From contig CAKZVJ010000164.1 in assembly GCA_937923345.1 (NCBI GenBank), positions 4,052-68,051 on the forward strand: 64,000 nt of DNA, written 5' to 3'. This DNA is from an uncultured Saprospiraceae bacterium. Lineage in GTDB: Bacteria > Bacteroidota > Bacteroidia > Chitinophagales > Saprospiraceae. Below the pieces are notes generated by a model. That model saw nothing but the letters and a program-made list of their open reading frames with translations. It ran no database searches and was not told the DNA's origin. The position numbers and the translations under genes are program-made. Shown piece by piece: positions 1,901 through 55,442 of this stretch (positions are counted from its first letter, which is position 1; every line of letters starts with the position of its first letter).

Positions 1901-2048
1901 GCGATCCTGCTTTTTGCAGGGAGCCTAGATTGGATGAGGGGTGGTAGCGGCATCCGTATGATATACAGACGCATTGATATGTGTCTATATCATACGGATA
2001 CAGCGGACGACCCGACCCTGAGCGAAGCGAATGGGTCAGCCCCACACC
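1901..2048 (+). repeat. GC-rich multi-hairpin interspersed element, type A, copy E1
   Basis: ATGAGGGGT box (1934-1942). GGTGGTAGCGGCA (1940-1952) and TACAGCGGACGAC (1999-2011) bracket an imperfect 17-19 bp hairpin. GACCC/GGGTC stem (2014-2018 / 2033-2037) encloses GCGAAGC. Ends in GCCCC. Confidence 0.8.
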
Positions 2049-18989: not shown

Positions 18990-19952
18990 ATGATTAAGCA
19001 GTTTATTAGAAAATTTAAACCTAGTTACGAGCTTTACAATTTGTTTAAGCGTTCCGAATTGGAGCATAACTTGAGCAAATACAAAAAGTATGGCCTTTCA
19101 AAAAAGTACTACTCATCTGTTTCTAGCCAAGATTTTGAAGGTCTAAACAGCCCACTTAATATCCATGATAGACTTGACACTCGAGATACCCTTCCAACTC
19201 AATTAGAGTTTCAAAATCTTTCCGTACAAAGGCAAAACGAATTATTGACTTGGTCTGAAAAAGGGTATGTTATTTTGAAGCATTTCTTCTCTCCCGAGAG
19301 GGTCCAGCAAATAAATACTGAGGTTGAAAATTTAAACAGAACGGGAAAAGCAAAGTGGGTAGGCAACAAGATGATGTTTGCGATTCATTATTCCGATATT
19401 ATGCTTCAAGCGAGTGCGGATCCAGAATTGATGAAGATTATCAATCTCATCATGGGAAAAAAAATGGAGCTTTTTCAAAGCATCAATTTTTTGACTGGAA
19501 GTGAACAAAGAACGCATTCTGACTCCTTTCATATGTCAACCTTTCCGTATGGCAATATCATAGCAGCCTGGATAGCCTTAGAAGAAACTAGCGCAGAAAA
19601 CGGTCCATTACACTACTATGAAGGCTCTCATAAATTGCCTTATATCGTAAATAAAGACTTTGGTAATGCTGGTACCTCTCTATTTTTAGGGAATAAACTG
19701 TACAGTGATTATGAAGATAAAATAGCGAGTATACTAGAGCAACATAATTTTGAAAGAAAAATATTGCTAGCTGAACCAGGAGATGTATTGCTATGGCATT
19801 CTAATCTATTGCATGGAGGAGAGCCCCACCGCAATAAAGAACTTACGCGAAAGTCTCTCGTAACGCATTACTATGCAGAGGATGCTATCTGCTTTCATGA
19901 AGTGACGCAAAGACCCACTTTGAAGCGCAAGTTAGAATTTCCCAGTCTCTAG
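18990..19952 (+). CDS. phytanoyl-CoA dioxygenase (PhyH) family Fe(II)/2-oxoglutarate oxygenase
   Basis: HSDSFH...AAWIALEETSAENGPLHYYEGSHKL...WHSNLLHGG gives the HxD...H facial triad and PhyH-like pattern. Confidence 0.7.
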   Translation: MIKQFIRKFKPSYELYNLFKRSELEHNLSKYKKYGLSKKYYSSVSSQDFEGLNSPLNIHDRLDTRDTLPTQLEFQNLSVQRQNELLTWSEKGYVILKHFFSPERVQQINTEVENLNRTGKAKWVGNKMMFAIHYSDIMLQASADPELMKIINLIMGKKMELFQSINFLTGSEQRTHSDSFHMSTFPYGNIIAAWIALEETSAENGPLHYYEGSHKLPYIVNKDFGNAGTSLFLGNKLYSDYEDKIASILEQHNFERKILLAEPGDVLLWHSNLLHGGEPHRNKELTRKSLVTHYYAEDAICFHEVTQRPTLKRKLEFPSL

Positions 19953-19993
19953 GTATTTAATTTAAGTAGATCAAATATGTTGTGTTTTCTTGA

Positions 19994-20187
19994 ATCGCGA
20001 CTCGCCGAAGGCGTCCAAGCTCGACAAAGCTTGTCCCGACTGGAGTGTAACGGAATGTCGGGGCGAAGTGCGTAAGGGGCAAACGGTGGAAGCGGCACCC
20101 AGAATATACGCATGGCAATGCGTATATTCTGGGTACAGCGGACGACGTGGTTCCGTCCTGATTTTTCATCAGGATCGGGATGACCCC
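19994..20187 (+). repeat. GC-rich multi-hairpin interspersed element, type A, copy E2
   Basis: GGTGGAAGCGGCA (20085-20097) and TACAGCGGACGAC (20134-20146) bracket a perfect 16-bp hairpin (20098-20133). At least four further hairpins. Ends in GATGACCCC. Confidence 0.8.
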
Positions 20188-20287
20188 TGATAAATATAAT
20201 CTCCTAACCAATATATTTTGACACTACAGAGAGAAAAATTATTAAACTAATGCCTTCTTTTGTTGTTCGATTCACAAACAATATTTA

Positions 20288-21325
20288 ATGAATAAGAAGG
20301 GAAAAATAGGCGTACTTGTCGTAAATCTGGGGACGCCAGACTCTCCAGGGAGGTACGATGTATATAAATACCTCAAACAATTTTTGCTAGATAGGAGAGT
20401 TATCGACATTCCATGGATATTCAGACAACTGCTCGTGAGAGGTTTCATCGCTCCGTTTAGATCTGGAAGTTCAGGAAAACTATATAAGAAGCTATGGACT
20501 GAAAATGGGTCTCCGTTAAAATATTATGGAGAGCAGTTAGTGGACGGTGTAAGTGCTGAGTTGGGTAGTGATTATGTGGTAGAGTTAGCGATGCGTTATC
20601 AGAATCCAAGTATTGAATCTGCCATTGAAAAATTGACGCGCCACAATGTACATGAAATCATCGTCTTGCCATTGTTTCCGCACTATGCTTCTGCATCTAC
20701 TGGATCTGTGCATGAAGAAGTCATGCGAATAGTGGGCAAGCAGTTGGCCATTCCAAATATCAAAATGATTAATTCTTTTTGGGACAATGAAGATATGATC
20801 AATGTCTTTGTGAAAAATGCAAAACAGTTTGATTTAAAGTCCTACGATCATATTCTTTTCTCTTATCACGGACTGCCTCAAAGCCAGTTGAGAAAAACGG
20901 ACAATTGTAACCACTGTTTGAAGGTTGATAACTGTTGTAGCACCATTTCAGAAAAGAACCAATTCTGTTATTCAGCGCAATGTCACGGGACAGCTCATAT
21001 CATTGCTGATAAATTAGGCTTGGATCAAAAGGATTATACCATTTGCTATCAATCTCGTTTAGGTCCAGATCCATGGGTTCAGCCCTATACCATAAAAGTA
21101 TTAGAAGAGTTGGCCAATAATGGTGCGAAAAGATTGTTGGTGTTTAGTCCAGCGTTTGTAGCGGATTGTTTGGAGACTACTATAGAAATAAGTGATGAGT
21201 ACCAAGAAGAATTTGAAGAGTGGGGAGGTGAGCACATCGACTTGGTTCCTAGTCTAAATGACGATCCAGAATGGATAAAAGGGGTGACTAAAATGATTAG
21301 GCAGGAATCAATGGTGCATGCTTAG
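20288..21325 (+). CDS. hemH: ferrochelatase
   Basis: GVLVVNLGTPDSP, YLKQFLLDRRVIDIP, LPLFPHYASASTGS and the C-terminal CLET motif region. Confidence 0.92.
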   Translation: MNKKGKIGVLVVNLGTPDSPGRYDVYKYLKQFLLDRRVIDIPWIFRQLLVRGFIAPFRSGSSGKLYKKLWTENGSPLKYYGEQLVDGVSAELGSDYVVELAMRYQNPSIESAIEKLTRHNVHEIIVLPLFPHYASASTGSVHEEVMRIVGKQLAIPNIKMINSFWDNEDMINVFVKNAKQFDLKSYDHILFSYHGLPQSQLRKTDNCNHCLKVDNCCSTISEKNQFCYSAQCHGTAHIIADKLGLDQKDYTICYQSRLGPDPWVQPYTIKVLEELANNGAKRLLVFSPAFVADCLETTIEISDEYQEEFEEWGGEHIDLVPSLNDDPEWIKGVTKMIRQESMVHA

Positions 21326-26807: not shown

Positions 26808-26940
26808 GGGCATGACCCAGATACTGCGCAGAAAAAGCGCCGCATCTGGGTCGGGCCATCCATGACTCCGTATTCACTTCGGACCATCCCTTGAGGGTCT
26901 GGTCTGCTCCTTACCGTCGCATCATTTCTACCCCTCATGC
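26808..26940 (-). repeat. GC-rich multi-hairpin element, diverged type A, inverted copy E3
   Basis: The reverse complement carries ATGAGGGGT (26930-26938 on the plus strand) and CCCGACCCAG...CTGGGTCATGCCC, which matches the E1 3' module CCCGACCCTG...GGGTCAGCCCC. Confidence 0.6.
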
Positions 26941-27477: not shown

Positions 27478-27557
27478 ATTGAAGAAAGAATTTATACGCT
27501 GAACCTAAGTGATTCTGTGGCGTATTTTCAGTACTTTTTGTTGAAATTATCAGATAA

Positions 27558-27616
27558 GATGGGCTACACCCATCGCTTTGTTGCATCGTGCCTTCAGCGC
27601 TAAAAGTACCTGGTAG
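27558..27616. repeat. possible degenerate fragment of the GC-rich element family (E4)
   Basis: GATGGGCTACACCC...GGTAGCC with GGCTAC/GTAGCC pairing. Resembles the ATGGGTAG 5' box of E8. Weak. Confidence 0.25.
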
Positions 27617-27676
27617 CCATTCATTTTCTTACCAATTTATTTTCTGAACATGCTTAATTCATAATCATTCATTTTG

Positions 27677-27795
27677 GAATGTTCAGAAATATCATATTTC
27701 GATGAGGTTAAACCTTCTTCACCTAAAAATCTCTAAATGATTACATCAATTTTAATATTATTACTTTAAAAACGGGGTGATTCTTTGATTCAATT
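27677..27795 (+). repeat. 119-nt AT-rich interspersed repeat, copy A
   Basis: Gapless 119-nt alignment to the reverse complement of 40981-41099 with 18 mismatches by my hand count. Identical blocks are ATGTTCAGAAATATCATATTTCG, AAAATCTCTAAATGATTA and TTAAAAACGGGGTGAT. Confidence 0.85.
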
Positions 27796-27825
27796 TGTCA
27801 TGATTTTTAAAAGAAAATCACGCCA

Positions 27826-27897
27826 AATTGGTCCCTGCTGCGCTAATACCCAGGGTTGTCACCCTGGGCTTTAATAAGGTCACCCCCTCTGGGGGTT
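27826..27897. repeat. possible short member of the GC-rich element family (E5)
   Basis: GCGCTAATACCCAGGG-ttgtca-CCCTGGG and GGTCACCCCCTCTGGGGG hairpins. The GCGCTAAT box resembles the GCTATKC box of type B. Confidence 0.35.
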
Positions 27898-28086
27898 CTT
27901 TTCTAACTTCTGAATATCCCTCATTTTGTTCTCGATTATTATAATATAAGCTAGCGTGTGCGAAACCACCACAGTAATCCAAAGTCAAAGCTCACTGATA
28001 CAAATCACCAGAGTATTTTATGGTGTCTTGTATAAATGAGAATGCTATAGTGAACTCCCTAATTCATAACTCATAATTCATAATTC

Positions 28087-28229
28087 CCTTCCTTCGTGTG
28101 AGCGATAGTAAGGGCAGCTGCTTCAGCAGCTGGTCCCGATTTTTTTCAATCGGGACGGGAGCGACAGCGCACCCCTGCATAGCGCGACATGGACCGACAC
28201 CTTTTTCGGTGGAGGGGAGTGGCACACCC
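28087..28229 (-). repeat. GC-rich multi-hairpin interspersed element, type B, inverted copy E6
   Basis: The reverse complement reads GGGTGTGCC...GCGCTATGCAGGGGTGC...GTCCCGAT-tgaaaaaa-ATCGGGAC...CAGCTGC-tgaa-GCAGCTG...CCCTTACTATCGCTCACACGAAGG. It is collinear with E7. Confidence 0.75.
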
Positions 28230-33026: not shown

Positions 33027-33440
33027 ATGGGCTTGAAAAAAAGAGGTAAAGTAAGTGCCGAATTTAGTATGTCGTCATTGACGGACATCATATTTTTGTT
33101 GTTGATATTTTTTATGTTGACATCAAAACTGGTGGTCATTGACCCGTACGAACTGCCAGAGTCAGATTCTACCACTGTAGCACCTACAAATATTATTGCA
33201 CAAGTAAGAACTACCGGCAAAATCCAGTTGAACGTAGATGGTAAGGAATCTATGGTCACCTCTACGAGAGAGATTGTGAGAAAAGTAAAGCCAGCCTTAG
33301 GTACTATTGAGAATAGAGACAATGCAACGCTCACCATTGTAGCAGAGGTCGGCGTCCCTTTTAAAAAAGTATCTATGCTGATGGCTGCTGCCGCTGAGTT
33401 AAGGATGAAAGCCATTATTGCAACACAACCTGTAGAATAA
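33027..33440 (+). CDS. exbD: ExbD/TolR biopolymer transport protein (paralogue 1)
   Basis: SLTDIIFLLLIFFM TM segment containing the conserved Asp, plus a periplasmic domain. Confidence 0.85.
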   Translation: MGLKKRGKVSAEFSMSSLTDIIFLLLIFFMLTSKLVVIDPYELPESDSTTVAPTNIIAQVRTTGKIQLNVDGKESMVTSTREIVRKVKPALGTIENRDNATLTIVAEVGVPFKKVSMLMAAAAELRMKAIIATQPVE

Positions 33441-33446
33441 AAGATT

Positions 33447-33836
33447 ATGGGACTTAAAAAAAGAGGTAAGGTAAGCGCTGAATTTAGTATGTCCTCATTG
33501 ACGGACATCATATTTTTGTTGCTTATATTTTTTATGCTGACATCGTCTTTGGTATCGCCCAATGCCCTCAATCTCAAGATGCCAGGTAAGGAAAGTGTCA
33601 AGAGCTCTACTGCAAATAACTTACAAAAAATTTCGATCACCAAGACAGGTTCATTCTTGTTTGAGGGAGTTGCGGTAAGTAACAACGCCATCAGTGATCT
33701 GATGAAAGGCATGAAAGGGGAGACCATCATAGTAGCTCCTCATCGCGATGCGCCGATTGAGAAGGTAGTCCGCATCATGGACCTTTCTATGCGTTACAAA
33801 ATCGAGACGGTGCTAGCGGCCTCAGACGACAGATAG
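33447..33836 (+). CDS. exbD: ExbD/TolR biopolymer transport protein (paralogue 2)
   Basis: First 33 aa are identical to paralogue 1. The periplasmic domain is divergent. Confidence 0.85.
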   Translation: MGLKKRGKVSAEFSMSSLTDIIFLLLIFFMLTSSLVSPNALNLKMPGKESVKSSTANNLQKISITKTGSFLFEGVAVSNNAISDLMKGMKGETIIVAPHRDAPIEKVVRIMDLSMRYKIETVLAASDDR

Positions 33837-33870: not shown

Positions 33871-34067
33871 ATGAGGGTGTGCCCCCTGATGGCCTCTCAA
33901 CGCCTCAAAAAAGAGGCCTTTAGAGGCCATCAGGCGTCGGGCTATTGCGGGGTGCCCGTTCCGATAGTTTTTTCTGATAGGTAGTTGTTTCTGTAAAACT
34001 GCAGCTAGTCAATAAAAAATCGGAACCGCCAAGAAGATTCGGCGCCCTATCTATCCCTCACACGAAG
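33871..34067 (+). repeat. GC-rich multi-hairpin interspersed element, type B, copy E7
   Basis: ATGAGGGTGTGCC. Perfect 13-bp stem 33885-33897 / 33922-33934 with a nested GCCTC/GAGGC hairpin. GGGCTATTGCGGGGTGC. GTTCCGAT (33958-33965) pairs with ATCGGAAC (34019-34026) across a 53-nt AT-rich loop. Ends in GCCCTATCTATCCCTCACACGAAG. Confidence 0.75.
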
Positions 34068-39977: not shown

Positions 39978-40982
39978 ATGGAGAGATTACAAATTTATGT
40001 GTCGATGATATTTCTACTTTCAATGTACACTTATACCATCAATGCGCAAACCCCTTTGTTTCCAAATTCGGTGGTGAGTAATGATATTGATTACATATTT
40101 GAATCGGATCCTGATTCTTTCGTTGGGAATATTTTCCTTGGTCGAGAAGATAGAGAAACACCTGGTGCTCCAGATGGGAGCAGCTTGTTTGATGTAGATA
40201 CTTATATTTTTGAAGCAAATTTTACAGACGGAGAAACAATCGAAATTTGGTGCCACAGTTCTTTTGAAAGTCAAGATGCTGCCCAAGAGTTTGCTGATAA
40301 ACTAGGGCCTAGACTCGGTAAGTTACCTATATTTCAAAGAAACATGTTAAACCACGTAGTAATTCATAATGGGGATGGTGGTGCTTTTGCCGAAATAGAA
40401 GGTCAATTTTTTATCCTTTATTCCGAAAATATGGATGCGAGAATTAGTACTAATGATTTGGAAGAAACTGTCTTTCATGAATCGGTACATTCTTCGTATC
40501 AGTTTATGTATCAAAATCATCCTGATTGGCTCGCTGCACAGGCAGCTGATCTTTCATTTGTTACGACCTTTGGGGAGAATAATCCTACCTTGGAGGATAT
40601 TGCCGAGTCTGCTCTTTTTGCTTATACATATCTCACCTATCCAGGAAGACTTGATGAAAGTATTGAAACTTGGTTGGAAGAAAACAATGCCAATAGATTA
40701 GAATTTTTTGGTAAGTTTTATGGTCAAACTACTAATGTAAGTGAAGTAGATTTACTCCAAGATCTAAGGATTAGCCCTAATCCTTCTAGAGGTAAATTTA
40801 CCTTGCATTCGGATGGAGCTTTAAATGGGGTAGTAAATATTATTAGCCTAGATGGGACCATTCTAAATTCACTACGGGTTGATAAGGAAAGTGAGTATAC
40901 CATAGATTTGAGCTCTTATGAAAATGGATTATATCTGATTTCAATACCAGGATATAAAGACGCAAAAGTTTTAAAATATTAA
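39978..40982 (+). CDS. T9SS C-terminal-sorting-domain protein with an HExxH motif
   Basis: Signal peptide. FHESVH (HExxH) in the N-terminal domain. C-terminal tail of about 80 aa, ISPNPSRGKFTL...GLYLISI...KVLKY, typical of type-A Por secretion tails. Confidence 0.65.
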   Translation: MERLQIYVSMIFLLSMYTYTINAQTPLFPNSVVSNDIDYIFESDPDSFVGNIFLGREDRETPGAPDGSSLFDVDTYIFEANFTDGETIEIWCHSSFESQDAAQEFADKLGPRLGKLPIFQRNMLNHVVIHNGDGGAFAEIEGQFFILYSENMDARISTNDLEETVFHESVHSSYQFMYQNHPDWLAAQAADLSFVTTFGENNPTLEDIAESALFAYTYLTYPGRLDESIETWLEENNANRLEFFGKFYGQTTNVSEVDLLQDLRISPNPSRGKFTLHSDGALNGVVNIISLDGTILNSLRVDKESEYTIDLSSYENGLYLISIPGYKDAKVLKY

Positions 40983-41099
40983 TTGAATCTGAGTATCACC
41001 CCGTTTTTAATTCAATAATCTTAAAAATGAATTAATCATTTAGAGATTTTAAGATGTAGAATGTTTTATCTCAACGAAATATGATATTTCTGAACATCC
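40981..41099 (-). repeat. 119-nt AT-rich interspersed repeat, copy B (inverted)
   Basis: Reverse complement aligns to 27677-27795. Begins inside the TAA stop codon (40980-40982) of the T9SS cargo gene. Confidence 0.85.
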
Positions 41100-41253
41100 C
41101 TACTTTGTCATGGTTTCTCTCAATAAGCAAAACAACCTGGAGCTATCTATAGCTCAGTTATTTTATTCTGAGAGTTGAGAGCTAGTAAAAAATAAAAACG
41201 ATAACCAATTCAACATTCAACCTACGACATAACGTTTATGCTAGATCCTACAT

Positions 41254-50068: not shown

Positions 50069-51142
50069 ATGAGTAATATAAACATTACCAAAGTTAGCCA
50101 TTCCAGAGTAGATCAGGTAGATTTTGACAATATACCTTTTGGCCAAACTTTTTCTGATCACATGTATGTTGCAGATTACATTGATGGCAAATGGACTAAC
50201 CATTCTATTGTTCCATTTGGTAATCTTTCTCTAAGCCCAGTAAATCTCGCTCTTCATTATGGACAGTCCATTTTTGAGGGCATGAAAGCGTTCAAAAAGA
50301 AAGATGGTACTCCTTCATTATTTAGACCTGAGCAGCATGTGATAAGGTTAAATGCTTCTGCTAGAAGAATGATGATGCCTGAGATTTCCAAAGAAATGTT
50401 TTTGGAAGCAGTACACGCGATTGTAGATATGGAGCAAAATTGGATTCCTAAGTCTAAAGGCTCGGCGCTATATTTACGGCCCGTCATGTTTGCTACGGAA
50501 GCTAAGCTCGGTGTCAAAGTATCGACTACTTACAAATTCATAATCATTACTGGCCCAGTTGGACCTTACTATCCTAAGCCAGTCAGATTATTAGCTGAGA
50601 CAGAATATACAAGAGCTGCACAAGGTGGTGTAGGTGAAGCAAAAACAGCAGGAAATTACGCTGCCTCATTATTGCCAGCCCAGTTGGCTAAGGAAAAAGG
50701 ATTTGACCAAGTGATTTGGTTAGATGCCAAGGAATACAAATACGTACAAGAAGTAGGCACCATGAATTTATTCTTTGTTTTCAAAGATAAAGTGGTCACA
50801 CCTGAGACTTCCGGTAGTATATTAAAAGGAATCACTAGAAAATCAATTATTGAGATTTTGAAGGCAGATGGTGTCACAGTAGAGGAAAGACTCATTAGTA
50901 TGGACGAAGTAGTTTCTGCACATGAGAGCGGCGAACTGCTAGAAATGTTTGGGTCAGGTACCGCTGCAGTGGTGGCCAATGTCAGTGAATTTAGTTACAG
51001 GGATAAGTTATACAAATTAGCTGACGTATCCACTCATTCCACAGCCAATGGCTTAAGAGATAAGATCAATGCGCTTAGAGCTGGAGAAATTGAAGATACC
51101 TTTGGTTGGGTTGTGGACGTTAAGAGCACAGTAAAAGTGTAG
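50069..51142 (+). CDS. ilvE: branched-chain amino acid aminotransferase
   Basis: Class IV aminotransferase with YGQSIFEGMKAF and GVGEAKTAGNYAASL (PLP lysine region). Confidence 0.9.
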   Translation: MSNINITKVSHSRVDQVDFDNIPFGQTFSDHMYVADYIDGKWTNHSIVPFGNLSLSPVNLALHYGQSIFEGMKAFKKKDGTPSLFRPEQHVIRLNASARRMMMPEISKEMFLEAVHAIVDMEQNWIPKSKGSALYLRPVMFATEAKLGVKVSTTYKFIIITGPVGPYYPKPVRLLAETEYTRAAQGGVGEAKTAGNYAASLLPAQLAKEKGFDQVIWLDAKEYKYVQEVGTMNLFFVFKDKVVTPETSGSILKGITRKSIIEILKADGVTVEERLISMDEVVSAHESGELLEMFGSGTAAVVANVSEFSYRDKLYKLADVSTHSTANGLRDKINALRAGEIEDTFGWVVDVKSTVKV

Positions 51143-51172
51143 CACGTTGCAAACTGAATAAGATATAATTAT

Positions 51173-51203
51173 AAAAGCTGTTCATTATTGGGCAGCTTTT
51201 TTT
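51173..51203 (+). terminator. weak putative terminator after ilvE
   Basis: AAAAGCTG / CAGCTTTT stem with a 12-nt loop and a T-run. Immediately precedes element E8. Confidence 0.4.
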
Positions 51204-51346
51204 ATGGGTAGTATGGTTTGGCGGATCCACTTGCCAAGCTAGGCTACAAGGCTCGGCAGCAAGTGGCCAGGCTATTCGCAGCTCGGTCCCGAAAGAAAAT
51301 ATTCGGGACTGGTCTCTACCGAGCCCACTGCTACTATCCTTATCCG
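51204..51346 (+). repeat. GC-rich multi-hairpin interspersed element, type B, copy E8
   Basis: ATGGGTAG..., CCACTTGCC/GGCA(GC)AAGTGG stem, GGCTATTCGCAG, GTCCCGAA-agaaaata-TTCGGGAC inside CTCGG/CCGAG, ending in CTACTATCCTTATCCG. Confidence 0.65.
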
Positions 51347-51474
51347 AAAAAAGAATGCCTTTTAGATTGTTCCCTGAATTCAAATCTTACAGCAATAAAA
51401 CCTATAGAGAAAATTAAAAAGGGGAGGCCATATAGCATGACTTCCCCTTTTTGATTGATAGGACTCTAATCAAA

Positions 51475-54311: not shown

Positions 54312-54335
54312 AATAACTTTTTGAAATTTGTTCTT

Positions 54336-54559
54336 CAGGCGGAAGCGGAACGCTGGAGCCCGTCGCTCGGTGAGCGCAAGGACAAAGAATCGAAACGGCA
54401 TACCCTATGTGCTGCGATGCATCAACTGCGTCGCAGCACATTTTTTTTTTACCAATATCTACCTTGCGGAATTCATACCTCAAGCACATAGGGTATATAG
54501 TGGAGAGTCTGGTGCCGTGCTGATGCAGGCTCTGCCTAAATCAGGATCGGTATGGCCCC
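54336..54559 (+). repeat. GC-rich multi-hairpin element, type A-like, copy E9 (encloses a terminator)
   Basis: GGCGGAAGCGGAA (54338-54350). 14-bp long-range stem 54400-54413 / 54483-54496. 3' module TCAGGATCGGTATGGCCCC matches TCAGGATCGGGATGACCCC in E2. Confidence 0.6.
54409..54450 (+). terminator. intrinsic terminator of the carbonic anhydrase gene, nested in element E9
   Basis: GTGCTGCGA (54409-54417) / TCGCAGCAC (54431-54439), followed by A then T10 (54441-54450). Confidence 0.8.
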
Positions 54560-54590
54560 AAAGTAAACTCTATGCGAAGAAAAAATCCAA

Positions 54591-55442
54591 TCAGAATAAA
54601 ATCCAAATGAGTAATGGGAGGTACATGGCCCCATCTATGCCGCCCGTATAAAACCAATCATGCTGCTTGCGAAAGGCTAGTATAATGAGTCCCAGCGTGA
54701 GCACATTGGTAGTATAATACACGATGGGGGTGCCAAAATATCCTAAGCCCAAGTAGGAGAGATAGACGTTCAGAAGGGTACAAATCACCAATAAAATCAG
54801 GCAAAGAAGTAGGGTATATCTCATCCCAATTCTAGCGGCTATGGTCTTTACGCCTGACACTTGATCAGCCTCTTTATCGCGGATGTCGAAAGGAAGCGTG
54901 ATGGCGAAAATATAGATAAATCGTTCTAAAAATAAAATCAAAGTGATGGTATCTAGCGTGGAGTAAGTGTCAATCGCTGCCGGTAATAATGCTGTGAGGC
55001 CTGCCCATACAAAGGAGATAACAAATATCTTGATATAGTTGAAATCCCTGAGTCGTGCACCATTTTTGAATACCGGAAGGACATATAGTAGGGATAGCAA
55101 GCCCGGAAGAAGGAGGACTACAACTTGACTCCATGGCAAGGTAAAGAACAAGACAACGGAGCAGACAAAAGCAAAAATACTGACTCCAAGAATGAGTTGC
55201 TGTAGCTTTTTAATTTTGTAAAAGCGATTCTCTTCGTCTACTAATTTAACTTTTTGCAAGCCAATAAATCTATGCAGAGAATATAACCAAGTGCAATTGG
55301 CTAAGAGAAAGAGAGCGGTATTGTCTATTGCTAGACTTCCAGTCAACAGATGCTTGGTATACAGGTAAAGACTCATAGCAGCGCCAGCTATCCATACATT
55401 GGTATACAAAATGATGTCAAGGACTCTGCTCAATATTCCCAT
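54591..55442 (-). CDS. UbiA-superfamily-like polytopic membrane protein (atypical)
   Basis: 8-9 TM helices and a second Asp-rich motif FDIRDKEAD. The first NDxxDxxxD motif is not visible. Confidence 0.4.
   Translation of the reverse strand: MGILSRVLDIILYTNVWIAGAAMSLYLYTKHLLTGSLAIDNTALFLLANCTWLYSLHRFIGLQKVKLVDEENRFYKIKKLQQLILGVSIFAFVCSVVLFFTLPWSQVVVLLLPGLLSLLYVLPVFKNGARLRDFNYIKIFVISFVWAGLTALLPAAIDTYSTLDTITLILFLERFIYIFAITLPFDIRDKEADQVSGVKTIAARIGMRYTLLLCLILLVICTLLNVYLSYLGLGYFGTPIVYYTTNVLTLGLIILAFRKQHDWFYTGGIDGAMYLPLLIWILF

Follow-up and report, generated by a model that had tools for sequence, protein, structure and literature searches.

A 64-kb stretch of DNA (64,000 nucleotides; below, the window) from an uncultured Saprospiraceae bacterium, contig CAKZVJ010000164.1, carries a GC-rich, hairpin-forming island at 19994-20187. 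The island (19996-20187) probably belongs, as a diverged copy from Saprospiraceae, to the Flavo-1 family (Rfam RF01705) and, as part of the same judgement, this family is probably a dispersed repeat that is maintained by its structure and whose folded single strand is what is propagated or bound. The hairpin published as Flavo-1 forms just one of the arms of a larger three-way junction, which has defined ends. With 76 positions and one arm, the Rfam model covers this arm and the short helix at its foot (Pa) alone; the junction with two further helices, P1 and P3, and the CC-A tail are unannotated. New here are the reach of the family well beyond Flavobacteriia, in forms that the current Rfam model misses; the exchange of arms and replacement of hairpins while the junction is kept; and the coming and going of copies between syntenic spacers.

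The island has a GC content of 54%, against 38.6% for the window. It starts 41 nt past the stop (19952) of a gene of the PhyH family (18990-19952); from its end, about 100 nt remain to the ferrochelatase gene hemH (20288-21325), with which it is co-oriented. The folding energy of the region is -86.4 kcal/mol, with z = -4.8 relative to dinucleotide shuffles. A sequence-only reading had earlier described the island as GC-rich, placed it about 40 nt after the PhyH stop and assigned five hairpins to it, and the sequence bears out each of these (Table 1). It had also observed that the long hairpin P2 is bracketed by two 13-mers that bracket a different hairpin at 1940-2011. The first, GGTGGAAGCGGCA (20085-20097), recurs with one mismatch at 1940-1952, and the second, TACAGCGGACGAC (20134-20146), is identical at 1999-2011. 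This recurrence exceeds expectation: at up to two mismatches the first box has 5 matches in the window where 0.84 are expected, and the second has 3 against 0.34.

Flavo-1 was reported by Weinberg et al. (2010, Genome Biol 11:R31) from 239 representatives as a likely RNA that is not cis-regulatory and for which no function was given (PMC2864571). Rfam labels it 'Gene; sRNA', and it is among the most numerous 'sRNA' families of that database (PMC9029176). The sequence-only reading had not recognised the family as any named one, but the core of its type A (GUGGWAGCGGCA / hairpin / UACAGCGGACGA) corresponds to Flavo-1. Flavobacterial loci with the same 12-nt boxes match RF01705 at 46.5 (L004), 43 (L018) and 42.3 bits (L126), the gathering score being 42 bits. 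Within the window, the copy at 1923-2021 can be aligned over the full length of the model but stays under this score, with 31.7 bits (E = 3.5e-5 in a search of 251 nt). The family is assigned to Flavo-1 because the box-sharing flavobacterial loci pass the threshold and this copy aligns to the whole model; the Rfam search suggested by the sequence-only reading thus gave an indirect link, through relatives and one copy, and the clean Rfam match by which that reading would have been refuted is partly in evidence.

In the alignment to the model, Pa, both boxes and P2 are in register, and Pa is the outer helix of the model. The boxes found here (GUGGWAGCGGCA / UACAGCGGACGA) differ from the Rfam consensus (AUUGAAGCGGAA / UGUAGCGGAAAG), and the differences at the arm base are compensatory. 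The architecture of Flavo-1, a 3-bp outer helix, two internal loops with AGCGG-type boxes on both strands and a terminal hairpin, is present, as is its distribution: many intergenic copies in Bacteroidota, in either orientation and without gene association.

Read in the sense of the strand that bears the G.A mismatches, the elements share a scaffold composed of P1 (5 bp), a single A, Pa (3 bp), the arm, Pa', GA or GG, P3, 0-1 nt, P1', CC and usually an A-rich run. The base of the arm places 5' R-U-R-G-W-A opposite 3' G-S-A-Y-R-R, and the non-canonical pairs in it are fixed, in the order R.R, two base pairs, G.A, N.N, A.G, two base pairs, G.A and onward. In type A, the distal arm consists of GCGGCA/UACAGC followed by the variable hairpin P2, which is unrelated in sequence from copy to copy yet always paired. 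The five seed sequences given with flanks in the 2010 supplement have the same ends, GCGUK-A-GGG ... CCC-GA-P3-N-MACGC-CC-A.

The stems of this scaffold covary better than chance, as the sequence-only reading had proposed to check. Across 30 elements of all types, 95.6% of the cells are paired and 12 of the 13 pairs show changes on both sides; this level was reached by none of 500 shuffles, and slid registers gave at most 44%. The same outcome was obtained with type A alone (23 elements). The alignment was parsed by hand, P1' being taken as the best complement beside a positional anchor, while Pa and the arm base are fixed by position; there is no choice in the alignment of Pa, because it lies directly beside the boxes. 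P1 is paired in 91-92% of cases (92% on the 23 type-A elements trimmed to the scaffold), with double changes at all five pairs and with such variants as GCAUU/AAUGC, GUGUU/AACAC, GCGUA/UACGC, CUGUG/CACAG, GCGCG/CGCGC, GCAUG/CAUGC and CGGAU/AUCCG. Pa is paired in 98.6-99.3% overall (98.6% on the 23 type-A elements), with the variants GC/AU/CG and GC/CG/UG.

Facing positions at the arm base of the 30 elements also vary in concert. The successive counts are G.A 19 and A.G 8; U.G 22 and U-A 8; G-C 21, A-U 8 and C-G 1; and G.A in 30 of 30. The outer pairs of P3 covary as well (C-G 18, U-A 10 and others) and are 96% paired. RNAalifold, given six unedited full-length sequences, independently finds Pa, P2, P3 and the pairs of the arm; of 37 pairs, 25 carry compensatory changes. 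Counts of G.U and A.C in P2 and P3, intended to tell the strand or type of molecule, came to 51 and 42. A covariance model built from trimmed 'mini' sequences returned only fragments at E > 0.4 and did not bridge the two long variable arms.

Upstream of the junction, the flagged copy bears an accessory 5' domain, which is restricted to a 'long' subtype in Saprospiraceae and is also carried by the copy at 54336-54559 and by several Saprospiraceae relatives. It comprises a closing CGCG/GCG stem, a hairpin with a GNA triloop, and a hairpin with a conserved ACUGGAGUGNAACGGAAY loop. In the flagged copy the closing stem is formed by CGCGAC (19996-20001) and GUGCG (20068-20072). The domain is found in loci L002 and L146 with compensatory stem changes (GUCCCGAC/GUCGGGGC versus GUCCAGAC/GUCUGGAC) around a conserved loop.

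Seven related elements are present in the window, four on the plus and three on the minus strand, all of them intergenic, and they use at least three arm designs (A, B and C). Conserved unpaired boxes, variable but complementary stems, both orientations and high copy number make this a true family, as had been supposed. The copies at 54336-54559 and, on the minus strand, at 26808-26940 are indeed related to the flagged one, with which they share the scaffold. A strict scaffold descriptor finds exactly these seven copies, where 200 local shuffles gave 0.99 on average and 5 at most, a test that is partly circular as the descriptor was derived from the same seven copies. A loose descriptor gives about as many matches in the window as in shuffles; only the strict version separates the copies from background.

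The connection between types A and B has to be redrawn. The ATGAGGG(G)TG 5' box to which it had been ascribed is not enriched (3 matches versus 2.1 expected) and involves a strand error: the sequence 'ATGAGGGTGTG' at 33871 is the reverse complement of an element 3' end, GGCACACCC-UCAU. Because this box is a reverse-complemented 3' end, the elements at 33871-34067 and 51204-51346 are minus-sense and only that at 28087-28229 is plus-sense. What actually links the types is the common P1/Pa/P3 scaffold. Among individual copies, the ends of copy 5 (type B2) are 88% alike to those of type B1; the tail of copy 3 (type C), CCAAAAAA, abuts the stop codon of SelO; and copy 7 has a long P2 with an internal AT-rich insert and bears the C-G variant of the covarying arm-base pair.

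Table 1. Positions in the window of the seven elements and of the parts of the flagged copy (copy 2).
Feature	Position	Strand	Basis
Copy 1, short type A; P1 GGAUG/CAGCC, Pa GGG/CCC, boxes GUGGUAGCGGCA / UACAGCGGACGA, P3 loop UGAGCGAAGCGAAU	1932-2043	+	Sub-threshold Rfam match, scaffold parse
Copy 2 (flagged copy), long type A with extra 5' domain	19996-20187	+	Scaffold
Copy 3, type C; P1 GCAUG/CAUGC, Pa GGG/CCC, arm GUAGAAAUGAUG...AGUCAUGGAUGG	26808-26940	-	Scaffold
Copy 4, type B1; P1 GUGUG/CACAC, Pa GCG/CGC, arm AUAGUAAGGGCA...ACCCCUGCAUAG	28096-28229	+	Scaffold
Copy 5, type B2; P1 GUGUG/CACAC, Pa GGG/CCC, arm AUAGAUAGGGCG...ACCCCGCAAUAG	33875-34063	-	Scaffold
Copy 6, type B3; P1 CGGAU/AUCCG, Pa AGG/CCU, arm AUAGUAGCAGUG...AGCUGCGAAUAG	51220-51346	-	Scaffold
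Copy 7, diverged long type A; P1 GGACA/UGGCC, Pa AGA/UCU, boxes AUCGAAACGGCA / UAUAGUGGAGAG	54336-54559	+	Scaffold
Copy 2: 5' accessory domain	19996-20075	+	Three hairpins within closing stem
Copy 2: hairpin CGCC-GAA-GGCG, GAA triloop	20003-20013	+	Sequence
Copy 2: hairpin CAAGCT/AGCTTG	20016-20033	+	Sequence
Copy 2: hairpin GTCCCGAC/GTCGGGGC, loop ACUGGAGUGUAACGGAAUGU	20033-20064	+	Sequence
Copy 2: P1 5' strand GGGCA, pairs with 20181-20185 (UGACC), central G.A mismatch	20077-20081	+	Family covariation
Copy 2: junction A, single nucleotide after P1	20082	+	Scaffold
Copy 2: Pa 5' strand ACG, pairs with 20146-20148 (CGU)	20083-20085	+	Position fixed beside boxes; 98.6-99.3% paired
Copy 2: 5' box GUGGAAGCGGCA, arm base with 20134-20145	20086-20097	+	Aligns to Rfam Flavo-1 consensus AUUGAAGCGGAA
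Copy 2: P2, long variable hairpin, perfect 16-18 bp stem, loop GGCA	20098-20133	+	Sequence, folding
Copy 2: 3' box UACAGCGGACGA	20134-20145	+	Box recurrence, Rfam alignment, facing-position covariation
Copy 2: Pa 3' strand CGU and junction GG (GA in flavobacterial copies)	20146-20150	+	Scaffold
Copy 2: P3 variable hairpin, UUCCG...CGGGA around CCUGA-UUUUUCA-UCAGG	20151-20180	+	Outer-pair covariation, RNAalifold
Copy 2: hairpin CCTGA/TCAGG	20157-20173	+	Sequence
Copy 2: P1 3' strand UGACC and tail CC	20181-20187	+	A-rich run next in most copies

We scanned 185,579 species genomes for GTGGWAGCGGCA-N30-60-TACAGCGGACGA and obtained 18 loci, including one chance match in coding sequence, from Flavobacterium, Thermobacterium, Luteirhabdus, Crocinitomix, Pelobium and Saprospiraceae. 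A scan of metagenomes (19 specified bases) returned 120 loci, of which about 13 are true elements and the remainder mostly chance coding matches. The boxes are near-identical between Flavobacteriia and Saprospiraceae. A near-identical metagenomic sequence (…GTGGTTAGAACCAGCGGCAAAACTACCACAG…AATACAGCGGACGAACCCAGCC…) in eight contigs (L026, L043, L053, L064, L101, L106, L111 and L139) matched the loose pattern and is devoid of the Flavo-1 scaffold. Locus L006 (CALRVY020000046.1), labelled as a metagenome-assembled genome (MAG) of Pseudanabaena sp., is a near-copy of a Flavobacterium locus with a type IX secretion system protein, Flavo-1 and pgk (87-98% protein identity); this bin is probably contaminated.

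Homologues of the ferrochelatase assign the window to Saprospiraceae. The contexts of the nearest relatives are MAG contigs with 84-87% identical HemH. A long type-A element lies upstream of hemH and co-oriented with it in the window and in L020, L146 and L022, with compensatory changes in the stems and conserved loops. In L024, L025 and L147 (hemH 84-85% identical), the PhyH-hemH spacer holds a B-like copy in reverse orientation instead. The type-C element after SelO is shared by the window and L024 (20314-20442), again with compensatory changes, while in L022 the SelO spacer is empty and 35 nt long. Likewise, the TonB-thiolase spacer that contains copy 4 measures 894 nt in the window and 113 nt in the homologous spacer of L022. 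Presence, type and orientation thus vary between syntenic spacers of related Saprospiraceae genomes.

In a flavobacterial subfamily (L018, L036, L044, L126 and L128), the elements are about 85-90% identical, as judged by eye, in unrelated flanks, and the similarity extends from a few bases 5' of P1 to ...CCCAAA at the 3' end. Between the orthologues L055 and L135, P3 has been replaced wholesale. Compensatory changes in place are seen between orthologous copies in L004 and L014, between copy 2 and those in L020 and L146, and between the type-C copies of the window and L024. The neighbours in the window are ordinary housekeeping genes (PMT-like, ABC ATPase, PhyH, SelO, thiolase, ExbD, TonB-like, aminotransferase and aldo-keto reductase). 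In some 20 independent loci, no neighbour protein family recurs, and the elements point either way relative to their neighbours.

Several peculiarities of the hairpins were observed in the relatives. In L002 (2682-2727), P2 is a perfect 46-nt palindrome without a loop, centred on GGTACC, which suggests that hairpins can arise by a palindrome-forming process at the DNA level. In L007 (7263-7302, Luteirhabdus pelagi), a 40-nt GC-rich palindrome, CCTGCCTGCC...GGCAGGCAGG, is inserted in the Flavo-1 element in comparison with the orthologous Thermobacterium copy L003, and P2 of L008 contains a similar CCTGCC...GGCAGG hairpin; this looks like a separate small palindrome, similar to repetitive extragenic palindromes (REPs), that invades the arms. 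In flavobacterial elements (L044, L126), a 16-nt P2 loop, UUGAGCGAAGUCGAAA, recurs as its exact reverse complement within P3 of the same elements, and window copy 1 has the related GAGCGAAGCGAA as its P3 loop (2019-2032). Long-range loop-loop pairing or an inserted inverted repeat are possible explanations.

We therefore favour, at the strength given at the outset, a dispersed repeat maintained by structure. The element would act through its G.A-bearing sense strand, folded on its own, either as single-stranded DNA (ssDNA) or as co-transcribed RNA, and a conserved trans-acting factor may recognise the junction and the mismatch-studded arm. The family would colonise, and be lost from, intergenic spacers in the manner of REPs and bacterial interspersed mosaic elements (BIMEs) or of structured families of miniature transposable elements with inverted repeats (MITEs), while selection for pairing would keep each copy folded in place. 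The element is no regulator of any particular gene, and the copies are probably not small RNAs with promoters of their own. Although ancient and constrained in its structure, the family behaves as a dispersed repeat.

A number of observations weigh against this interpretation. No Rfam match exists at the gathering score anywhere in the window, none of its copies reaching 42 bits; the flagged copy (19900-20300) has no Rfam match even at E<=10, types C and B1 do not match the model, and the membership of the flagged copy and of types B and C rests on the hand-parsed scaffold. The copies in the window are highly diverged, with no near-identical pair among them, which disfavours recent copy-and-paste activity, and viral contigs, phage records and plasmid records yielded no element matches. 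No terminal inverted repeats or target duplications were seen at the boundaries inspected, and no transposase, reverse transcriptase or open reading frame (ORF) resembling a REP-associated tyrosine transposase (RAYT) occurs in the window or in the loci of relatives examined. All of these results argue against simple mobility. Presence and absence were seen only between genomes about 15% apart in protein, and gain, loss and replacement are indistinguishable because the flanks no longer align. Finally, the strong covariation, conserved loops and in-place compensatory changes also fit a functional RNA. The sequence-only reading had offered a structured RNA family or a REP/BIME/MITE-like element; the structured interspersed family stands, whereas the REP/BIME/MITE-like alternative is only a possibility, with no terminal inverted repeats, no target duplications, no near-identical copies in the window and no RAYT gene in the DNA examined.

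The strongest competitor, which we regard as unlikely but deserving of attention, is a paralogous family of genuine structured non-coding RNAs (ncRNAs), transcribed or processed from read-through, in which the junction with its G.A-rich arm binds a protein or acts catalytically. The covariation in P1, Pa, P3 and the arm base argues for it, as do the conservation of the 5' domain loops while the stems covary, the compensatory evolution of orthologous copies in place, and the near-identity of the boxes between Flavobacteriia and Saprospiraceae. The U.G wobble conserved at the arm base (in 22 of 30 elements) sets which strand is functional, and the motif was judged a likely RNA on its discovery (PMC2864571). 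However, published transcriptomics of Flavobacterium psychrophilum lists 128 Flavo-1 hits, many of which are not transcribed or lie antisense to the covering transcript (PMC9723704). By eye, no consistent promoter-like sequence was seen upstream and no terminator downstream, and orientation relative to genes looks random. Most loops of P2 and P3 are rich in U instead of being stable RNA tetraloops, and in one case P2 is a perfect palindrome with no loop. C-G-closed GNA triloops are a hallmark of DNA hairpins, which we likewise count against an ncRNA family.

Less probable still is a REP-like or REPIN-like origin, in which non-autonomous ssDNA elements are cut and moved by a single-copy HUH Y1 transposase (RAYT) whose gene lies elsewhere in the genome, and the R-U-R-G at the foot of the arm serves as the GT[AG]G guide. 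The arm opens with GUGG, AUAG, GUAG or AUGG right after a short helix, recalling the GT[AG]G foot that REPs have (PMC6006769); there are multiple copies, all intergenic and in both orientations; and small GC-rich palindromes (CCTGCC...GGCAGG) are inserted into Flavo-1 arms in L007 and L008. In contrast, the subclass-2.6 REPs (Table S1, PMC6006769) are GCTAG-type hairpins of 24-35 nt and not Flavo-1-like junctions. No ORF with an HuH...Y motif was found in the window or in the 149 loci searched. The copies measure 110-250 nt and are very diverged, unlike REPIN populations, and their split (four plus, three minus) shows no strand bias, although seven copies are too few to test this. REPs are by definition hairpins of 20-40 nt that have GT[AG]G at the 5' foot and are near-identical in any one genome, a description that does not suit these elements, in which the R-U-R-G foot lies inside a larger fold.

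It is very improbable that the flagged copy is a cis-regulatory leader of hemH, riboswitch-like or acting as an attenuator. The copy is co-oriented with hemH, whose start codon lies 100 nt downstream; the window, L020, L146 and L022 all have an orthologous long type A at this position; and flavobacterial copies are found upstream of pgk in five species. Against this, the element is absent in L024, L025 and L147, whose hemH is 84-85% identical; the other six copies of the window and about 20 loci have unrelated neighbours in every orientation; and no terminator or sequestering helix reaches the ribosome-binding site of hemH. A riboswitch or leader would hold a constant position in the 5' untranslated region of one gene class, and what is found is local orthologous conservation at hemH and pgk.

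Other classes were rejected. For a MITE, the terminal inverted repeats and target-site duplications are missing: the ends pair over 5 bp only and covary, with no duplication at the inspected boundaries. The 3' tail consists of CC and an A-rich run, with no U tract, and on the opposite strand the T run precedes the hairpins, which does not fit an intrinsic terminator. Retron msr/msd, group II intron fragments, integron attC sites, IS200/IS605 ends, TnpB/IscB omega RNA, hammerhead and other ribozymes and 5S-like RNA were set aside for the absence of an adjacent reverse transcriptase or transposase, of any Rfam match and of a fitting architecture, an exclusion that rests partly on general knowledge of these families. 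ARAGORN found no tRNA or tmRNA gene in the window (0 genes), nor did Rfam at the gathering score indicate a housekeeping RNA.

We put forward with considerable reserve a further idea, that Flavo-1 and the B and C forms are a single superfamily in which a conserved three-way junction accepts interchangeable arms and hypervariable, often perfectly palindromic hairpins. If true, this would point to a structure-dependent propagation mechanism in Bacteroidota, for which an ssDNA or RNA intermediate handled by an enzyme, with new hairpins arising by snap-back synthesis, would be candidates; alternatively, the scaffold could be a new ribonucleoprotein or ribozyme scaffold. Flavo-1 has been without function or mechanism for the fifteen years since its description. 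A model of the full scaffold would permit genome censuses, tests of strand bias and phyletic matching to enzymes, and so make the choice between mobile DNA and functional RNA testable.

In annotation, neither small-RNA genes nor ORFs should be assigned to such islands. The elements are overlapped by mechanical ORFs, 84-107 aa long, at 19957-20211 (-, 84 aa), 51120-51383 (-) and 54328-54651 (+), which are most likely artefacts of GC-rich structured sequence, not genes to annotate. The window also contains further features. A second interspersed repeat, AT-rich and about 130 nt long, has no relation to the Flavo-1-type elements and occurs at 27676-27810 (+) and 40970-41100 (-); the two copies are inverted, 82-85% identical and both intergenic. 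At 27827-27900 lies a GC-rich double hairpin (CCCAGGGUUGUCACCCUGGG ... CCCC-N-GGGG) that matches the Acido-Lenti-1 RNA motif below threshold (24.7 bits where the gathering score is 37; E = 0.0047 in a search of 1.5 kb), and a weaker second match lies at 27557-27601 (15.5 bits). Tandem exbD paralogues are located at 33027-33440 and 33447-33836, with their first 98 nt 90% identical, and the second matches Pfam ExbD.

Among known systems, the GA-cis RNA motif (RF02987) shows a weak local match to the 3' half of copy 1, where GACGACC and a hairpin with a GAGCGAAGCGA loop score 21.4 bits (E = 0.02). This is far under the gathering score of 34.7 and covers the element partially, and it is a lead rather than membership. 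Pneumococcal BOX, ERIC and the Correia/NEMIS MITEs, which are modular structured repeats from Firmicutes and Proteobacteria, have shared end modules, variable middles and stable folds, are intergenic and are often co-transcribed with their neighbours. In these families sequence identity is retained from copy to copy, and there are terminal inverted repeats, whereas in the window elements the ends pair over only 5 bp and covary, with no target duplication seen.

REPs, BIMEs and REPINs are similar to the window elements in being abundant, intergenic, strongly folding and independent of orientation, in carrying a purine-rich tetranucleotide at the foot of the hairpin, and in persisting for long periods by vertical descent. 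REPs are simple, near-identical hairpins of 20-40 nt, however, while the window elements are junctions of 110-250 nt with arms wholly different between copies. The closest likeness is to Flavo-1 itself, with which they share Bacteroidota hosts, multicopy intergenic occurrence in either orientation, the 3-bp outer helix, the AGCGG-type boxes and the variable terminal hairpin. They depart from the Rfam family in their host, Saprospiraceae instead of Flavobacteriia, in their different boxes, in the extra 5' domain and in the P1/P3 junction annotated here.

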